Assembly: GCA_040770465.1 (NCBI GenBank)
Contig: JAXGJB010000022.1
Location: 1 to 40,390 of the forward strand
Direction: 5' to 3'
From: Methanothrix sp.
GTDB lineage: Archaea; Halobacteriota; Methanosarcinia; Methanotrichales; Methanotrichaceae
Length of the DNA stretch: 40,390 nucleotides
Every line of letters starts with the position of its first letter. Position 1 is the stretch's first letter. The notes beneath the pieces are model-generated. The model saw nothing but the letters and a program-made list of their open reading frames with translations. It was not told where the DNA came from and did not search any database. Made by a program: the position numbers and the translations under genes. This document shows, one piece after another, positions 6,594 to 37,774 of this stretch.

Positions 6594-6826
6594 GTGCCAA
6601 TTGTCGCTAGCTCAAGAGCAGCTCAGATCTCCCTTACGAGGGCCAACAGATCCTCCGGGCCGGCTAAGGGGTAAGGGGGGGGCCCGTGCGGGAGAGACGC
6701 CGCCGGACGGAGTGAGGGCGGGGTCGGCTCGACGCTAGCGCCACCCCCCTCCACACACCGCAGGATGAAGGCCGACCCCGTCTCGGGCATATGACTTGGG
6801 ATCGCGCCAGTTTACTCTCCAAAAAA

Positions 6827-9297: not shown

Positions 9298-10674
9298 TCA
9301 CCTGAACAGCTTCGAGAAGCTCCTGCAACGATCGCCGATCTTCTTTGAGAGCGGCTCCTCGGCGGGAGTTTCGTCCCTTTGATGATCGAGTCTGCCATGG
9401 CACTTCTTGAACTTCAGCCCGCTTCCGCAGGGGCAGGGATCGTTTCGACCCGGCTTCAAAAACGCCCTTACCACCTTTCCCTCGTGAGATCCCGTATAGC
9501 TCATGATGTTGGCAGGAGCCCGGCCGGCCAGAAGCTCGCTCGCCATGAACCGCATCGAGCCGTCGATGTGTTTGAAGAACGCCCTGTAGCCGGGACAGAG
9601 ATAGTTGAGACCCGGCTCTCCATCGGGCGTTTTGACGAAGCGGTTCTTGGGACATTCGCCGTTGCAGACGAATCGAACCTCGCACCGGCGGCAGTATTCG
9701 GGCAGAGTATCAAGCTTGTCGCGGCCGAACTTCCGCTGCTTTGCCGAGCCGGCGATCTGAGCGAGGGGCATCTCGTTGATGTTGCCGAGGAGGTACTTCG
9801 GCTCGACGAAGTGGTCGCAGGAGTAGACGTCGCCGTTGTGCTCTACGACCATCGCCGTCCCGCAGGTCTCAGAGAAGGCGCATATCCCCGAAGGTCTTCC
9901 GAACCAGGCGGCGAGGGCGACATCGAAGATCTGGACGAAGGTCTTCCCCACGTCTCTTCTGACCCACTCGTCGAAGACGGCGATGAGAAAGCGGCCGTAC
10001 CTCTCGGGGTCCACCGAGCGGTCGGTGACGCGGTCGCCCTCCTGAAACCCCGTGGAGTTCTCCCTCTCAACGATGGGTATGAACTGGATGAAGTCGGTCT
10101 TCACCTCGTCTCGGAGGAATCGGTAGACCTCCAGGGGGTGGTCCTGGTTGGCGGCGTGGACCGTGGTCAGGATGTTGAAGTCGACCTTGTGCTTGCGGAG
10201 GAGGCGGGCGGCGTTCATCACCCGGTCGAAGGTGGGCCCTCCGGCCTTGTCCACCCGGTAGGCGTCGTGAAGCTCCCTCGGCCCGTCCAGGGAGAGGCCG
10301 ATGAGAAAGCCGTTCTCGCAAAAGAACTCGCACCATTCGTCGTCGAGGAGGGTGCCGTTGGTCTGCATGGTGTTCTGGAATTCTATTCCCGGGCGCCGAT
10401 ACTTCTCTTCGAGCGAGATGGACCTCCGGAAAAAGTCCAGCCCCATCAGGGTAGGCTCTCCCCCCTGCCAGGCGACGGTGACCGAGGGGTTCTTCTGGGA
10501 CTCCGTATACTGGCGGATATAGCTCTCAAGAAGCGAGTCGGACATCCGGAAGCTGCTCTTAGGATATAGGTCCTTCTTGGAGAGGAAGAAGCAGTATCTG
10601 CAGCCCAGATTGCAGATCGCCCCCGTGGGCTTTGCCATGAGATGAAAGCCGGGAAGTGGGCCCTTCTTGCTCAT
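9298..10674 (-). CDS. Anaerobic sulfatase-maturating enzyme (radical SAM/SPASM) with C-terminal SEC-C motif
   Basis: [14 protein letters not shown] (CxxxCxxC), WQGGEP, QTNG, SLDGP; SPASM cysteines ([24 protein letters not shown]); SEC-C motif [19 protein letters not shown]. Confidence 0.94.
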
Positions 10675-10782: not shown

Positions 10783-12368
10783 GTTTCAATGGGGGCACGA
10801 CTTTTCAGCCATGGATAGGAGGAGATTCTGTGGAAACGCTTACTGGTGAATCAAGGATGGAATTTCAATGGGGCCACGACTTTTCAGCCATGGATAGCCA
10901 ACGAAACGCTCGAATGTGATGGCTACCTGGATGGTTTCAATGGGGCCACGACCCGAAGGTCATGGTAAGACGCCGACTGCCACCGTCAAGGTATACAGCA
11001 GAGACCTGGTTTCAATGGGGCCACGACCCGAAGGTCATGGTAAGATTTTACCCGGACGGACACACAGAATCGTCCGATAACGTTTCAATGGGGCCACGAC
11101 CCGAAGGTCATGGTAAGTGGTCAAGTGGTTAGGTCCTTCGATCTGGGAAGCCGAGGTTTCAATGGGGCCACGACCCGAAGGTCATGGTAAGAGGGAGGGA
11201 GATAGCCTCAATGACTAATAACAACGAGAGTTTCAATGGGGCCACGACCCGAAGGTCATGGTAAGTCTGGATATCCGTAGGCATGGCTCTGATGTGTGCC
11301 ATCCTGTTTCAATGGGGCCACGACCCGAAGGTCATGGTAAGCGAGGTGGATTGATGAAATATCACGTCTCCGAGGGGAAGTTTCAATGGGGCCACGACCC
11401 GAAGGTCATGGTAAGACCGCATTAAGGAAAACATTCCTATCTGCGGAATTGATCGTTTCAATGGGGCCACGACCCGAAGGTCATGGTAAGTATCCGTCGC
11501 GCTGCGAGCCTAAAGCCCCTTGCCGTATGTTTCAATGGGGCCACGACCCGAAGGTCATGGTAAGGAAACAAGTCGTCCGAGACGTAGCCGAAGCCCGGCG
11601 AGTTTCAATGGGGCCACGACCCGAAGGTCATGGTAAGTGAAATTCTTGTGTTTGGATACGATAGCGCAGACGACGTTTCAATGGGGCCACGACCCGAAGG
11701 TCATGGTAAGTGATGAGATCAAAGTGGAACCGACTGCGACTGCAAAGTTTCAATGGGGCCACGACCCGAAGGTCATGGTAAGACCAGAAAGCGCTTATCT
11801 TGGGCGACCTTCTGGTTATGTTTCAATGGGGCCACGACCCGAAGGTCATGGTAAGTGATGGCGGAGGACCAAGCAAGGATGAGAAAAAGATCGTTTCAAT
11901 GGGGCCACGACCCGAAGGTCATGGTAAGAGGAGGCGAACGAGACCATCCAGGAACTAACAGAGAAACGTTTCAATGGGGCCACGACCCGAAGGTCATGGT
12001 AAGCCGAGATTGCAATGCCTAACAATACCACAAATTTGCGGTTTCAATGGGGCCACGACCCGAAGGTCATGGTAAGAGTAAAATGAAGCAGAAACAACCA
12101 GGAATGAAGGTGTTTCAATGGGGCCACGACCCGAAGGTCATGGTAAGAAAGATATGGGTGTCCTTATTTCTGCTTATAAATTGGGTTTCAATGGGGCCAC
12201 GACCCGAAGGTCATGGTAAGAGTACCATGAATCCGAACCAAAGCGTGAAACTCGAAGGTTTCAATGGGGCCACGACCCGAAGGTCATGGTAAGAGAGAGT
12301 GATGACATAATGAAGCTACAAGATTGGGTAAAGTTTCAATGGGGCCACGACCCGAAGGTCATGGTAAG
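10783..12368 (-). CRISPR. CRISPR array: 22 repeats of 36 bp (20 of type B, 2 trailer repeats of type A) and 21 spacers of about 35-43 bp
   Basis: Type B (+ strand) GTTTCAATGGGGCCACGACCCGAAGGTCATGGTAAG occurs 20 times from 10934 to 12368. Type A (G/A)TTTCAATGGGG(G/C)CACGACTTTTCAGCCATGGATAG starts at 10783 and 10862. Minus-strand transcription is inferred from the 3' ATTGAAAC end, the stable tetraloops, and the leader and cas2 on the right. Confidence 0.98.
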
Positions 12369-12825
12369 AGCTAGAGTTTTACGACCTTAATGCATAGCGA
12401 AAAAAATCTATTTTGCGCGAACCTCCGTCACTTCTGCGATTCGATACAGAAGATAGCCCGATTTTTTGCCGTTTTCGATATGCAGAGACACTGCACGGAC
12501 GATTTTTTCAAATGTGCCAGCTGATATCGATGGGTTTTTTGAGGGGAGGTTCGCGCAAAAATCTCGGTTATTTTGACGGCTTCATAGAATTTTCGATATC
12601 GGGCAGCCATCAAACCGATGCATATCGATTATCTCTTTGCTATGCCCTGGGATGGGTATAGCGTTATCCATCCGTCTGGATCGAATGGCCTTTGATCAGC
12701 TATCAAAGGGGCTTATTCACCCAGATGCCCTTTTTTGTATGTGGTGGATTTGACTGCTATTAAACCTTTTGCCACCTGCCCCACCACGCCAGCATAACAA
12801 TTAACGTTTATTGATAATAGTATGA
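12369..12825 (-). promoter_or_regulatory. CRISPR leader with a 16-bp inverted repeat and a candidate BRE/TATA
   Basis: AT-rich non-coding stretch between cas2 and the first repeat. TTTTGCGCGAACCTCC (12411-12426) pairs with GGAGGTTCGCGCAAAA (12545-12560). Minus-strand AAAAGGTTTAATAG at about 12757-12770 points toward the array. Confidence 0.75.
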
Positions 12826-13134
12826 TTATACTATTATGTACTTCCTCCTGGGCGAACCTAGCGGTGCGACCCCCAAAAACTCGATCCTATCCTCCATCCA
12901 TCCTTCTGCCGGTCCCATGTCGATGATCATGATCCGATCCTTTTCTGGTTCCATGATATCCAATAGAGCTGCCTTCAGCTCCACCCGCCCCCTGCCGGTG
13001 AGCCGACATCCGAATACGGAATAATGGATGGGATCTCCAAAGCCCATCATCCTCTCATGAACCTTCTTCAGCCGCTTGACGTCCATGATGTCGTAGCTCA
13101 CGATGTAGAAATGTAGCCCAGTCAGGGCCATCAC
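12826..13134 (-). CDS. cas2: CRISPR-associated endonuclease Cas2
   Basis: YIVSYDI..KRLKKV....GFG..IHYSVF.C.L pattern; about 100 aa; directly downstream of cas1 and next to the leader. Confidence 0.93.
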   Translation of the reverse strand: MMALTGLHFYIVSYDIMDVKRLKKVHERMMGFGDPIHYSVFGCRLTGRGRVELKAALLDIMEPEKDRIMIIDMGPAEGWMEDRIEFLGVAPLGSPRRKYIIV

Positions 13135-13421
13135 CTCCGAGAGAAGGGCGGATACTCCGCTATCTCCCCGGAGAGGACCCGAGAGAGAAGCCTCGCCTGA
13201 ACCTCCATCACCCTCCGATAGGAGAGCTTGTAGCCGAACAAGGGATGCCTCACCTCGGTCCCAACGCGGTGCTCATAGGCGGCAAGCACCTTCCTCTTCG
13301 CCGACGGCTCCATCGTGACCCCAAGTTCAGTCACCAGAAAATCGTCTTTCTTCAGCTCTCTGTTGTTGAAGAGGGCTATGACCACCGGCTCGGCGACTTG
13401 TGGCCGGAACTCCTCAATCAA
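13131..13421 (-). pseudogene. cas1: 3' fragment of cas1 (about 96 codons; resembles the C-terminus of type I-G/I-U Cas4-Cas1)
   Basis: EEFRP..A..VV, YEHR...EVRHPLFGYKLSYRRVMEVQARLL...L.GEIAEYPPF. Similarity starts abruptly at the (D)LxEEFR motif; upstream is the T-tract and stop of the sulfatase gene. Confidence 0.9.
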
Positions 13422-13462: not shown

Positions 13463-15160
13463 TCAGCTCGCTCCCGACGAGATCGGATACGCCCTCGAAG
13501 GAGTATTCGGATACTCCACCATGCTGGCCACAAGCCCTCGATAGATCCTGGTGAACGCGCTGATGACGAAATCGTGCTCACCTGCGATGTTGTGCTCCTC
13601 ACGGGGGTCCATCTCGATGTTGTAGACAGCGGGGATCTGGCCGTAATAGCTCTCAGGCCCCTGGAACGAGTCGTACCCCTTGGTGACGACCTTGAACTGA
13701 TGCCACCTGACGGCCGCGGGAATCGTGTTGGCCGCGCTATCGGTTCCGATGTACCAGACCACCCACTCCCGGTTCGAGTCATCCTGTCTTCCGAGGATGA
13801 ACTCCGACTGGTCTATGCCGTCGATCGGCCTGTCCGCGGGGATCTCGCCGCCGCCAAGGACGACCAGGGTGGTGAAGAGGTCGAGGGTGCACATGATCCC
13901 GTTCGACGACCTATCGGCCTCGATCATTCCAGGCCACCAGAATATGCAGGGAACCCTGACGCCGCCTTCATAGATTGTGCCTATCCCGCCCCGGAAAGGC
14001 GAGTACCCCGAGTCTGGCCACTGGTCGAGGGTCGGCCCGTTGTCGCTCGTCAGAACGACGATGGTGTTGTTCTCGATCCCAGCCTCACGGAGGGTGTCAA
14101 GAACCTCTCCGACGTAAGAGTCCATCTCCATCAACCCGTCGCCGTAGGCGCCTTTGCTGGACTTGCCAGCCCATTTCGGGTTCTGAACGCTGGGGAAATG
14201 AGTCCGGACGAAGGGGAGGTAGACGAAGAAGGGCTCGGTGGAGTTCGACTGATTCTTGATGTAAGCGATCGCCCTCTCAGTACACTGCTCATCAATGAAC
14301 GCCAGCGACGATACGTTCAACGCCGCAACCTGAGTGAGGTTCTCGCCTTTCTTCGCCTCCACCAACCCCAGGGGCTCTCCCGACTCCCAGCTGGAGTCGA
14401 AGCCGATCCGCTCGCTCTGGGTGTAGGAGTTGAGGTGATACAAAACCCCGAAGTATTCGTCAAAGCCCATGTTCTGAGGCTCACTCTCGTAGATGTCCCC
14501 AAGATGCCACTTGCCGAACATCGCCGTATTATAGCCGGCATCTGACAGCACCCTCGCCAGGGTCCTCTCGTCGGGAGATATGCCGGCGTTTGATCCGGTC
14601 TCCGACGCCAGAGCCATCCCCGTCCGGATGGGGAGCCTCCCGGTCAGCATCGCCGCCCGTGTGGGGGTGCACTGGGTCTCCGAGTAGAAGGATGTCAGCC
14701 TCAGACCCTCTTTTGCCATCTCGTCCATCCTGGGTGTCGGAGCGCCCAGCACCGCCCCGCCGCCGTAGCAGCCTGGGTCCATGTACCCCATGTTGTCGGC
14801 GAGCATGATCACGATGTTCGGCCTTGGGGCCGGCGCCACGTCCTCATGCATCGCCTGCTGAAGGCTGGAGTTGTTGGCGAGAACATTTTTCCTGTTCGTT
14901 ACGACGTCCGCACCCATGTCCTCTGGAGCGTCCGCCTGATCGTCACCTGTCCCATTATCGCCTGAGCCGCCGGCTTTCAGATCCAGTGGTATGACGGACA
15001 GGCCAGTGTTCCCTGAATCAAGGCCGCCTGCAGCGATAAAAATTACAAAAAAAGCTGCTATAGCCAATTTGAATAGAAGCCCAATTTTGATACAGACTCC
15101 TCCAATGCGGGTAATTTGCCTTTTTCTTATATAACTATTCTTCCATGATTTCATCTTCAA
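13463..15160 (-). CDS. Cys-type formylglycine-dependent sulfatase (arylsulfatase family) with N-terminal hydrophobic anchor/signal
   Basis: PNIVIMLADNMG, QCTPTRAAMLTGR (CxPxR), GKWHLG, SDNG and YEGGVRVP. The start is uncertain (TTG 15160 or ATG 15154). Confidence 0.93.
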   Translation of the reverse strand: MKMKSWKNSYIRKRQITRIGGVCIKIGLLFKLAIAAFFVIFIAAGGLDSGNTGLSVIPLDLKAGGSGDNGTGDDQADAPEDMGADVVTNRKNVLANNSSLQQAMHEDVAPAPRPNIVIMLADNMGYMDPGCYGGGAVLGAPTPRMDEMAKEGLRLTSFYSETQCTPTRAAMLTGRLPIRTGMALASETGSNAGISPDERTLARVLSDAGYNTAMFGKWHLGDIYESEPQNMGFDEYFGVLYHLNSYTQSERIGFDSSWESGEPLGLVEAKKGENLTQVAALNVSSLAFIDEQCTERAIAYIKNQSNSTEPFFVYLPFVRTHFPSVQNPKWAGKSSKGAYGDGLMEMDSYVGEVLDTLREAGIENNTIVVLTSDNGPTLDQWPDSGYSPFRGGIGTIYEGGVRVPCIFWWPGMIEADRSSNGIMCTLDLFTTLVVLGGGEIPADRPIDGIDQSEFILGRQDDSNREWVVWYIGTDSAANTIPAAVRWHQFKVVTKGYDSFQGPESYYGQIPAVYNIEMDPREEHNIAGEHDFVISAFTRIYRGLVASMVEYPNTPSRAYPISSGAS

Positions 15161-37701: not shown

Positions 37702-37774
37702 GGCCGGAGCCGGGATTCGAACCCGGGTCATGGGATCCACAGTCCCAAAGGATGACCAGCTACCCTACCCCGGC
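37702..37774 (-). tRNA. tRNA-His (GTG)
   Basis: GCCGGGG/CTCCGGC acceptor stem, TGGGA-CT GTG GA-TCCCA anticodon arm, GGTTCGAATCC T arm and C discriminator. CCA is not fully encoded. Confidence 0.97.

Follow-up and report, generated by a model that had tools for sequence, protein, structure and literature searches.

A strand-biased CRISPR array of probable type I-G ancestry that likely serves a type III-C complex in trans in Methanothrix

A CRISPR array in Methanothrix sp. (assembly GCA_040770465.1, contig JAXGJB010000022.1) carries spacers of one predominant orientation. We consider it likely that this array belongs to a family derived from type I-G systems and used by type III, and that its CRISPR RNAs (crRNAs) serve a type III-C complex in trans, hence the strand bias. 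The window, meaning the whole stretch of 40,390 nucleotides (nt) analyzed, is contig C22 of genome G000, an assembly of 2.54 Mb in 66 contigs that is 94.85% complete. The array spans 10783–12368, comprises 22 repeats (36 nt each) and 21 spacers (35–43 nt), and has the minus strand as its inferred direction of transcription. An earlier sequence-only reading had described spacers at 10819–12332, which is the spacer-bearing part and not the whole array, and had proposed that their crRNAs are antisense to mRNAs. A coding-strand-biased, type I-derived array that serves type III in trans is a phenomenon already known, of which this is a clear new instance. Its apparent paradox, I-G-looking adaptation genes beside type III-looking spacers, is resolved by comparison inside one archaeal family.

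The purine richness that the sequence-only reading noticed on the plus strand goes beyond chance. Across the spacer-bearing stretch (10819–12332), whose plus strand would be the target-like, mRNA-like sense, mean purine content is 0.587, with 17 of 21 spacers above 0.5 and 4 of 21 below (sign-flip p=0.0017; binomial p=0.007). The AT skew amounts to +0.22 and the GC skew to +0.12. A sister array on contig C32 behaves alike, with 13 purine-rich against 3 purine-poor spacers of 16 (p=0.015), and when the three same-family arrays of this genome are pooled, the observed skew is reached by 0 of 100,000 flips. In contrast, contig C25 bears a type I-B array of the same genome that has a different repeat; oriented in the same way, it shows no skew (20 versus 11 of 38 spacers, mean 0.507, p=0.63). 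Spacers of the two arrays differ in purine content (Mann–Whitney p=0.011).

The same spacers had been said to read as plausible coding sequence, an impression that proved non-discriminating. Neither strand lacks an open frame in any of the 21 spacers, the totals being 41 on the plus strand and 44 on the minus strand, so that part of the impression was due to chance, as the accompanying caveat on short sequences had allowed. When a codon model was built from the 208 host genes of low GC (71% correct), it called 16 spacers sense and 5 antisense in this array (p<0.001), 7:9 in the C32 array and 19:19 in the I-B array. This model is not independent of the purine skew because it partly re-measures purine content. 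Four contigs of the assembly (C20, C52, C61 and C43) have a G+C content of 0.51–0.53 against about 0.58 for the genome, and of the 208 long open reading frames (ORFs) with low GC, 16 lie on C20. No spacer of the genome matches these contigs, which may be mobile elements or mis-binned DNA.

Some spacers also resemble translation starts. With a motif fixed before counting (a Shine–Dalgarno-like pentamer, 3–10 nt, then ATG; hereafter the ribosome-binding-site motif, RBS–ATG), 3 of 21 spacers match on the plus strand and 0 on the minus strand; composition-preserving shuffles give a mean of 0.44 (P=0.009). The spacer at 11192–11229 (plus) has GGGAG, 10 nt and ATG ACT AAT, and that at 11342–11379 (plus) has GAGGT, 6 nt and ATG AAA TAT, each resembling a translation-start region in sense; the third match, in the spacer at 10819–10861, is weak. 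Of the examples proposed earlier, those at 11192 and 11342 match the motif, while those near 12227 and 12310 have an ATG without a Shine–Dalgarno-like run. Plus-to-minus counts are 1:0 in the C32 array and 0:2 in the I-B array, and in host DNA the motif is equally frequent on both strands (2.3% versus 2.1% of 37-mers). The I-B array is thus unbiased on three measures: purine content, the low-GC codon model and RBS–ATG.

Five concordant observations support transcription of the array from the minus strand, as the sequence-only reading had taken it. In that orientation the repeat reads CTTACC...CCCCATTGAAAC and its last bases are ATTGAAAC. The minus strand carries the cas1 fragment, cas2, leader and array in collinear order. 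The flank that begins at 12369 is 86.5% identical over 401 nt to the flank of the array on C32; because it is conserved beside a second array, we take it as the leader (12369–12825, minus strand), its first ~400 nt by the array being those shared with the leader of the orphan C32 array. Both variant repeats sit at the array end far from the leader. Finally, a contig of run X5 from a near-identical strain, with 1 difference in 756 nt across leader and cas2, has a single different 38-nt spacer connecting the leader-proximal repeat to the distal variant repeat, in place of 19 spacers and 18 repeats of this genome (window 10898–12333). Leader-end content that differs in this way points to recent turnover in the population. 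The lone X5 spacer is itself purine-rich on the plus strand (24/38, by hand count).

The leader also contains a 12-nt inverted repeat, GCGCGAACCTCC / GGAGGTTCGCGC, at 12415–12426 and 12546–12557, with its arms ~120 nt apart. The C32 leader has GCACGAACCTCC / GGAGGTTCGTGC (L001 ~6678–6689 and ~6809–6820), in which both arms have changed and complementarity is kept. The element may represent a leader RNA with structure or a palindrome to which a protein binds.

The repeats connect the array with a type III locus. Spacers are unique and without noteworthy similarity to one another, and the repeats are regularly spaced, 20 of 22 being identical. These 20 copies of the main repeat form the leader-proximal block (10934–12368, minus strand). 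The two distal variant repeats (10783–10818 and 10862–10897), with the oldest spacer between them, make up 10783–10897 (minus strand). Differences in the variant are confined to the half away from the GTTTCAAT end, and the variant is the very repeat of a mini-array that lies beside a type III-C module on contig C13. The main repeat and the C13 repeat differ in the 5' 17 nt and are identical in the 3' 19 nt. The repeat RNA is predicted to form a hairpin of 8 bp that has UUCG in its loop and a 12-nt tail, CCCCAUUGAAAC, after it. Minimum free energies of the hairpin are -13.5, -14.5 and -10.7 kcal/mol for the main, C32 and variant repeats (z -2.8 for the main repeat and -2.8 to -3.4 overall), and the 8-bp stem lies at the same position in all three, preserved via compensatory changes. 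A generic scan found arrays on C13, C22, C25 and C32 only, that on C32 (16 spacers) without any cas genes.

The sole cognate effector found in the assembly is the type III-C module on C13. Matches to repeat-associated mysterious proteins (RAMPs) number three in this genome, all on that contig, where the gene order is Csb2-like, an inserted MntA-type gene, Cmr1-like, RAMP, Csx11, Cmr4-like, a 213-aa protein and RAMP. The order is III-B-like, and Csx11 (TIGR02682, 455.6 bits against a cut-off of 248.95) places the module in subtype III-C; the 213-aa protein is a candidate small subunit. Read by eye, with no alignment, the Csx11 protein has an N-terminal LHDYKK stretch and no visible GGDD. Reading frames are open in each of the six type III-C genes and in the Csb2-like gene. 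Csb2 is the Cas5/Cas6 fusion of type I-G, and the 344-aa C13 protein matches model positions 242–491 of 492, the C-terminal half only. At a distance of 6–7 kb from the type III-C genes lie a truncated Cas4g/Cas1g (231 aa, model positions 321–546; L008:16226–16921), cas2 and the three-repeat mini-array.

An RNA-targeting effector acting in trans, as the sequence-only reading had postulated, is supported by this module with its same-family mini-array and by the linkage in the relatives G023 and G024 described below. Of the cas10, Cmr/Csm and Csb genes whose presence elsewhere it had left to be checked, Csx11, the RAMPs and the Csb2-like gene are there on C13; model searches of the genome returned no Cmr2-type Cas10 and no Pfam Cas6. 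The genome yields no I-G Cas7g with a model that scores a relative's Cas7g at 118 bits. An I-G effector set was not found: the only Cas3 belongs to type I-B (Csx17 was not searched for). Nor does the 94.85%-complete assembly contain a full-length Cas4g/Cas1g, only two fragments, the window's (96 aa) and that of C13 (231 aa).

The other CRISPR–Cas system of the genome is a complete type I-B locus on C25 (L006:7268–18524) with Cas1, Cas4, Cas8b, Cas7, Cas5 and Cas3. Its array (C25 18690–21496) has 39 repeats and 38 spacers, and its repeat likewise ends in ATTGAAAC. Because no Pfam Cas6 occurs in the genome, the I-B Cas6 would be one of three unassigned ORFs or shared.

Other features beside or inside the type III-C locus (L009:1–3500 and 11396–12551) are a transposase of the IS5 family, a SAVED-domain fragment of 178 aa, toxin–antitoxin genes (HepT-like and MntA-like), a segment of ~90 nt that is duplicated and another small fragment of the Csb2-like gene. 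The MntA-like gene lies between the Csb2-like gene and Cmr1. Each of the two independent Cas4g/Cas1g truncations directly follows a housekeeping gene, aldehyde dehydrogenase on C13 and sulfatase in the window.

Relatives offer a natural comparison. Among 105 genomes of the family Methanotrichaceae, the repeat family occurs in 69, full-scoring Cas4g/Cas1g in 42, RAMPs in 45, Cmr2 in 37 and Csx11 in 15. Two genomes of the same genus display the linkage directly: G023 has Cas4/Cas1, cas2 and a 39-repeat array followed by a complete type III-B module, and G024 has Csb2-like, Cmr1, RAMP, Csx11, Cmr4, a small protein, RAMP, a 23-repeat array, cas2 and Cas4/Cas1. Among the matches listed, at least 14 genomes have Cas4g/Cas1g and Cmr2 on one contig within ~15 kb. 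In 13 of 30 loci, a Csb2-like gene stands immediately upstream of a type III module; the others include the full Csb2 of type I-G.

Arrays of this repeat family fall into two sub-families by the crRNA handle, AUUGAAAC or AUUGAAGC, which are one base apart. In G023 and G024, arrays with AUUGAAAC have type III genes no more than ~12 kb away; by coordinates this is also so in G014, G081 and G083, and it is so in G000 too (the C13 mini-array). Arrays with AUUGAAGC come directly after csb2 in 4 of 4 array-holding I-G-like loci (L055, L056, L061 and L064). Taken gene by gene, L064 exceeds every cut-off: Cas3g 770 bits, Cas8g1/Csx17 683, Cas7g 118, Csb2 192 and Cas4g/Cas1g 744.

Spacer orientation follows the same division. 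The comparison covered 459 spacers of the repeat family from 21 genomes. In genomes with RAMP matches (326 spacers), purine-rich outnumber purine-poor spacers 196:111 and RBS–ATG sense outnumbers antisense 18:5; genomes without RAMP matches (133 spacers) give 70:56 and 3:3 (Mann–Whitney p=0.005). By handle, 12 genomes with 273 spacers have AUUGAAAC and 10 with 186 spacers have AUUGAAGC. Mean purine content is 0.549 for AUUGAAAC versus 0.498 for AUUGAAGC, spacers above versus below 0.5 number 177:81 versus 89:86, and genomes whose mean exceeds 0.5 number 12/12 versus 4/10. RBS–ATG counts, sense to antisense, are 18:2 versus 3:6, and the low-GC codon model gives 179:94 versus 103:83. With G000 removed, AUUGAAAC arrays still give 146:74 for purine and 14:2 for RBS–ATG, so the bias is replicated in 11 other genomes. 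Two sister repeat sub-families with the same kind of adaptation gene are thus unbiased where linked to I-G and biased where linked to type III.

How might such a bias arise? Pre-crRNA would be made from the minus strand out of the conserved leader. The Csb2-like, Cas6-type protein encoded on C13 probably cuts the transcript at each predicted 8-bp hairpin, so that AUUGAAAC would be the 8-nt 5' handle of the crRNAs. The type III-C (Csx11) complex encoded on C13 would take these up in trans and, by analogy with its family, would recognize invader transcripts. The Cas4/Cas1–Cas2 machinery would acquire spacers from DNA regardless of orientation; protection would come only from those with a crRNA complementary to mRNA, and such spacers would be retained. 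The plus strand of the array would then carry the mRNA-like strand of the retained spacers, which would make it purine-rich and endow it with RBS–ATG motifs. Because the adjacent cas1 is a 96-aa stump, either new spacers would depend on a different Cas1 or the array has stopped growing in this strain.

A broader scenario can be framed for the family, though we think it improbable. A type I-G unit for adaptation and processing (Cas4/Cas1, Cas2, a Csb2-derived Cas6-type protein and a hairpin repeat) would have been captured by III-B and by cyclase-less III-C in Methanotrichaceae, with the one-base handle change from AUUGAAGC to AUUGAAAC sorting arrays between DNA-targeting I-G and RNA-sensing type III. 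If true, the bias of AUUGAAAC arrays would be the first in-vivo sign of active transcript-sensing type III-C complexes, and the many RBS–ATG spacers could reflect a preference for the 5' ends of messages, at acquisition or by selection.

Several observations weigh against service to type III-C as the explanation. A second codon model, for which every long ORF of the host served as training set and which was 74.5% correct on host 37-mers, leaves the orientation unclear, with 13:8 sense to antisense in this array (p=0.09) and 4:12 in the C32 array; over the family it gives 152:121 for AUUGAAAC arrays (p=0.07) and 95:91 for AUUGAAGC arrays. Host sense strands have a purine content of 0.51–0.54, below the 0.587 of the spacers, so the targets would have to be more purine-loaded than the host, or the skew has another source. 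The split by handle was made after the data had been seen, and related genomes are non-independent samples. The G023 array, although it stands by type III-B, has no purine skew (18:18), yet its RBS–ATG count is 3:0 and its codon calls are 27:11; G053 has no purine skew either (7:8). G015, which is 99% complete, has mildly biased AUUGAAAC arrays (10:6) and no RAMP, Cmr2 or Csx11 match. An RNA library contained one 230-nt contig on the leader (12457–12687) and none on the array, in data that are strandless and possibly include DNA. The explanation also needs the type III-C complex and the Csb2-like protein to accept the main repeat, which they may well do, given the hairpin in common and the identity of the 3' 19 nt.

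Searches for protospacers count on the same side. No self-target or protospacer turned up in the genome itself or in any of the extracted loci. Five exact scans of viral contigs with 24–28-nt pieces from 5 of 170 spacers gave 0 matches, as did two exact scans of metagenome contigs; the viral and metagenome scans together used pieces of six different spacers, and their blanks say little because one spacer piece per scan is insensitive. Whole-array blastn against cultured phages gave nothing usable, only two weak 78% matches (E 0.5). In a whole-array search of the 105 family genomes repeats dominate, and all inspected matches are repeats; in five low-hit genomes, 8 of 8 matches are repeats or repeat edges. 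Because no protospacer was found, the antisense orientation rests on proxies: purine skew, the direction of RBS–ATG motifs and the contrast with type I arrays all suggest that the guides would pair with mRNA. Enrichment for translation starts as such, apart from orientation, was not seen, since motifs on either strand occur in 20 of 273 versus 9 of 186 spacers (Fisher p=0.33).

The array might instead be a relic, its bias the fossil of an earlier type III or complete I-G/III partnership, and be out of use in this strain, whose adaptation module has decayed and whose III-C module would be inactive or unable to accept the main repeat. The truncation of Cas4g/Cas1g both by the array (96 aa) and on C13 (231 aa), the lack of cas genes at the C32 array, and the IS5 transposase, toxin–antitoxin genes and duplicated Csb2-like fragment in or beside the type III-C locus all fit such decay. 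They stand against 20 identical repeats, a leader that is intact and conserved between two arrays, open frames in the Csb2-like gene and throughout the six type III-C genes, and the near-identical X5 strain, whose different leader-proximal content points to recent turnover; on this evidence we hold a relic to be unlikely. A cause other than type III strikes us as less probable still: spacers may have been acquired by primed or replication-linked uptake from one-directional elements, or crRNAs may be used by the I-B Cascade. The I-B repeat yields the same 8-nt handle, ATTGAAAC, which might permit cross-loading, and G015 is mildly biased without detectable type III genes. PMC8482600 also reports a coding-strand preference in some type I subtypes, including I-A and I-B. 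The genome's own I-B array is unbiased on all three measures, however, as are the I-G sister arrays, and bias in the same direction in 12 of 12 genomes is unlike chance priming.

That short sequences merely look purine-rich and coding, by chance or as a composition artefact, is hardly credible. Open frames are indeed equal on both strands, but the sign-flip result, the 0 of 100,000 flips for the three family arrays and replication in 11 other genomes speak against it, and as a cause of the purine skew chance was tested and rejected. Service of this array to the type III-C complex in trans remains the reading that we favor.

Related arrangements are known. PMC8482600 describes type III effectors that share type I arrays and adaptation modules, a coding-strand bias of type III spacers, and an explanation of the bias of natural type III arrays by retention of mRNA-pairing spacers. 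Measured against type III systems that use type I arrays (PMC8482600, PMC5576922), the present array is alike in having no adjacent effector, a type I kind of adaptation module and repeat, and type III genes elsewhere, and also in spacers oriented for crRNA–mRNA pairing, here by proxies. It differs in that the donor is I-G, the likely partner belongs to the cyclase-less subtype III-C and the I-G effector was not found in the genome, and in that the type III loci carry their own gene resembling the C-terminal half of Csb2.

PMC3973734 characterizes subtype III-C (MTH326-like) by the Cas10 analogue Csx11, TIGR02682, and a III-B-like gene order; the C13 module shares the Csx11 score and that order. 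According to PMC11229360, III-C loci are devoid of cyclase active sites, and an HD domain occurs in half of them. C13 differs from subtype III-C in its extras: a Csb2-like gene upstream and, nearby, a truncated Cas4g/Cas1g, cas2 and a mini-array. To our knowledge, III-C has no known ancillary effectors and has seen little experimental work. The oriented spacers of III-C-linked arrays argue for a III-C that still works by transcript sensing.

Type I-G (formerly I-U) consists of Cas3g, Cas8g/Csx17, Cas7g/Csb1, Csb2 and a Cas4–Cas1 fusion. The array resembles it in that the Cas1 remnant best fits Cas4g/Cas1g and the repeat is a close sister of canonical I-G repeats in relatives. In contrast to type I-G, this genome has no Cas7g that we could find, only a protein like the C-terminal half of Csb2, and only fragments of Cas4g/Cas1g; in contrast to I-G arrays, the handle is one base apart (AUUGAAAC versus AUUGAAGC) and the spacers are strand-biased. 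Specialists may find interest in the III-C partner, in Csb2-derived processing and I-G-type adaptation genes within type III loci, and in the unbiased I-G sister. We found no description of this arrangement for type III-C/Csx11 or for Methanothrix spacers, in a literature search whose coverage left out most subscription journals. Methanothrix-like methanogens are important in anaerobic digestion and methane production and their viruses are poorly known; the spacers are handles for finding them.

In the window itself, the array is accompanied by two cas genes, one of them a remnant. An intact cas2 (12826–13134, minus strand, 102 aa) scores 51.8 bits with PF09827 and 27.1 bits with TIGR01573 (cut-off 24.5). 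Next to it, 13131–13421 (minus strand) encodes only the C-terminal 96 aa of a Cas4g/Cas1g, model positions 451–546 of 546. The I-G-like appearance of cas1 and cas2 that had been remarked on holds in part, the Cas1 being a C-terminal stump of 96 aa for which Cas4g/Cas1g is the best model (125.3 bits over the last 96 positions). No further Cas4/Cas1 was found in the window by tblastn with a full-length relative, and 16 cas protein queries of types I-B, III-B, III-C and I-G gave no other match there, so the earlier statement that the window holds no effector stands for every cas query tried.

The neighboring genes concern sulfatases. A 458-aa ORF at 9298–10674 was weighed as a possible cas1 and discarded, since it encodes an anaerobic sulfatase maturase (496 bits). 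The array and cas remnant lie between this gene and a sulfatase gene (13463–15160), all on the minus strand, and the Cas1 stump ends ~40 nt from the stop of the sulfatase gene, so that the cas remnant seems wedged into a sulfatase/maturase pair. The sole Rfam match in the window is a tRNA gene at 37702–37774 (minus strand, 58.4 bits).

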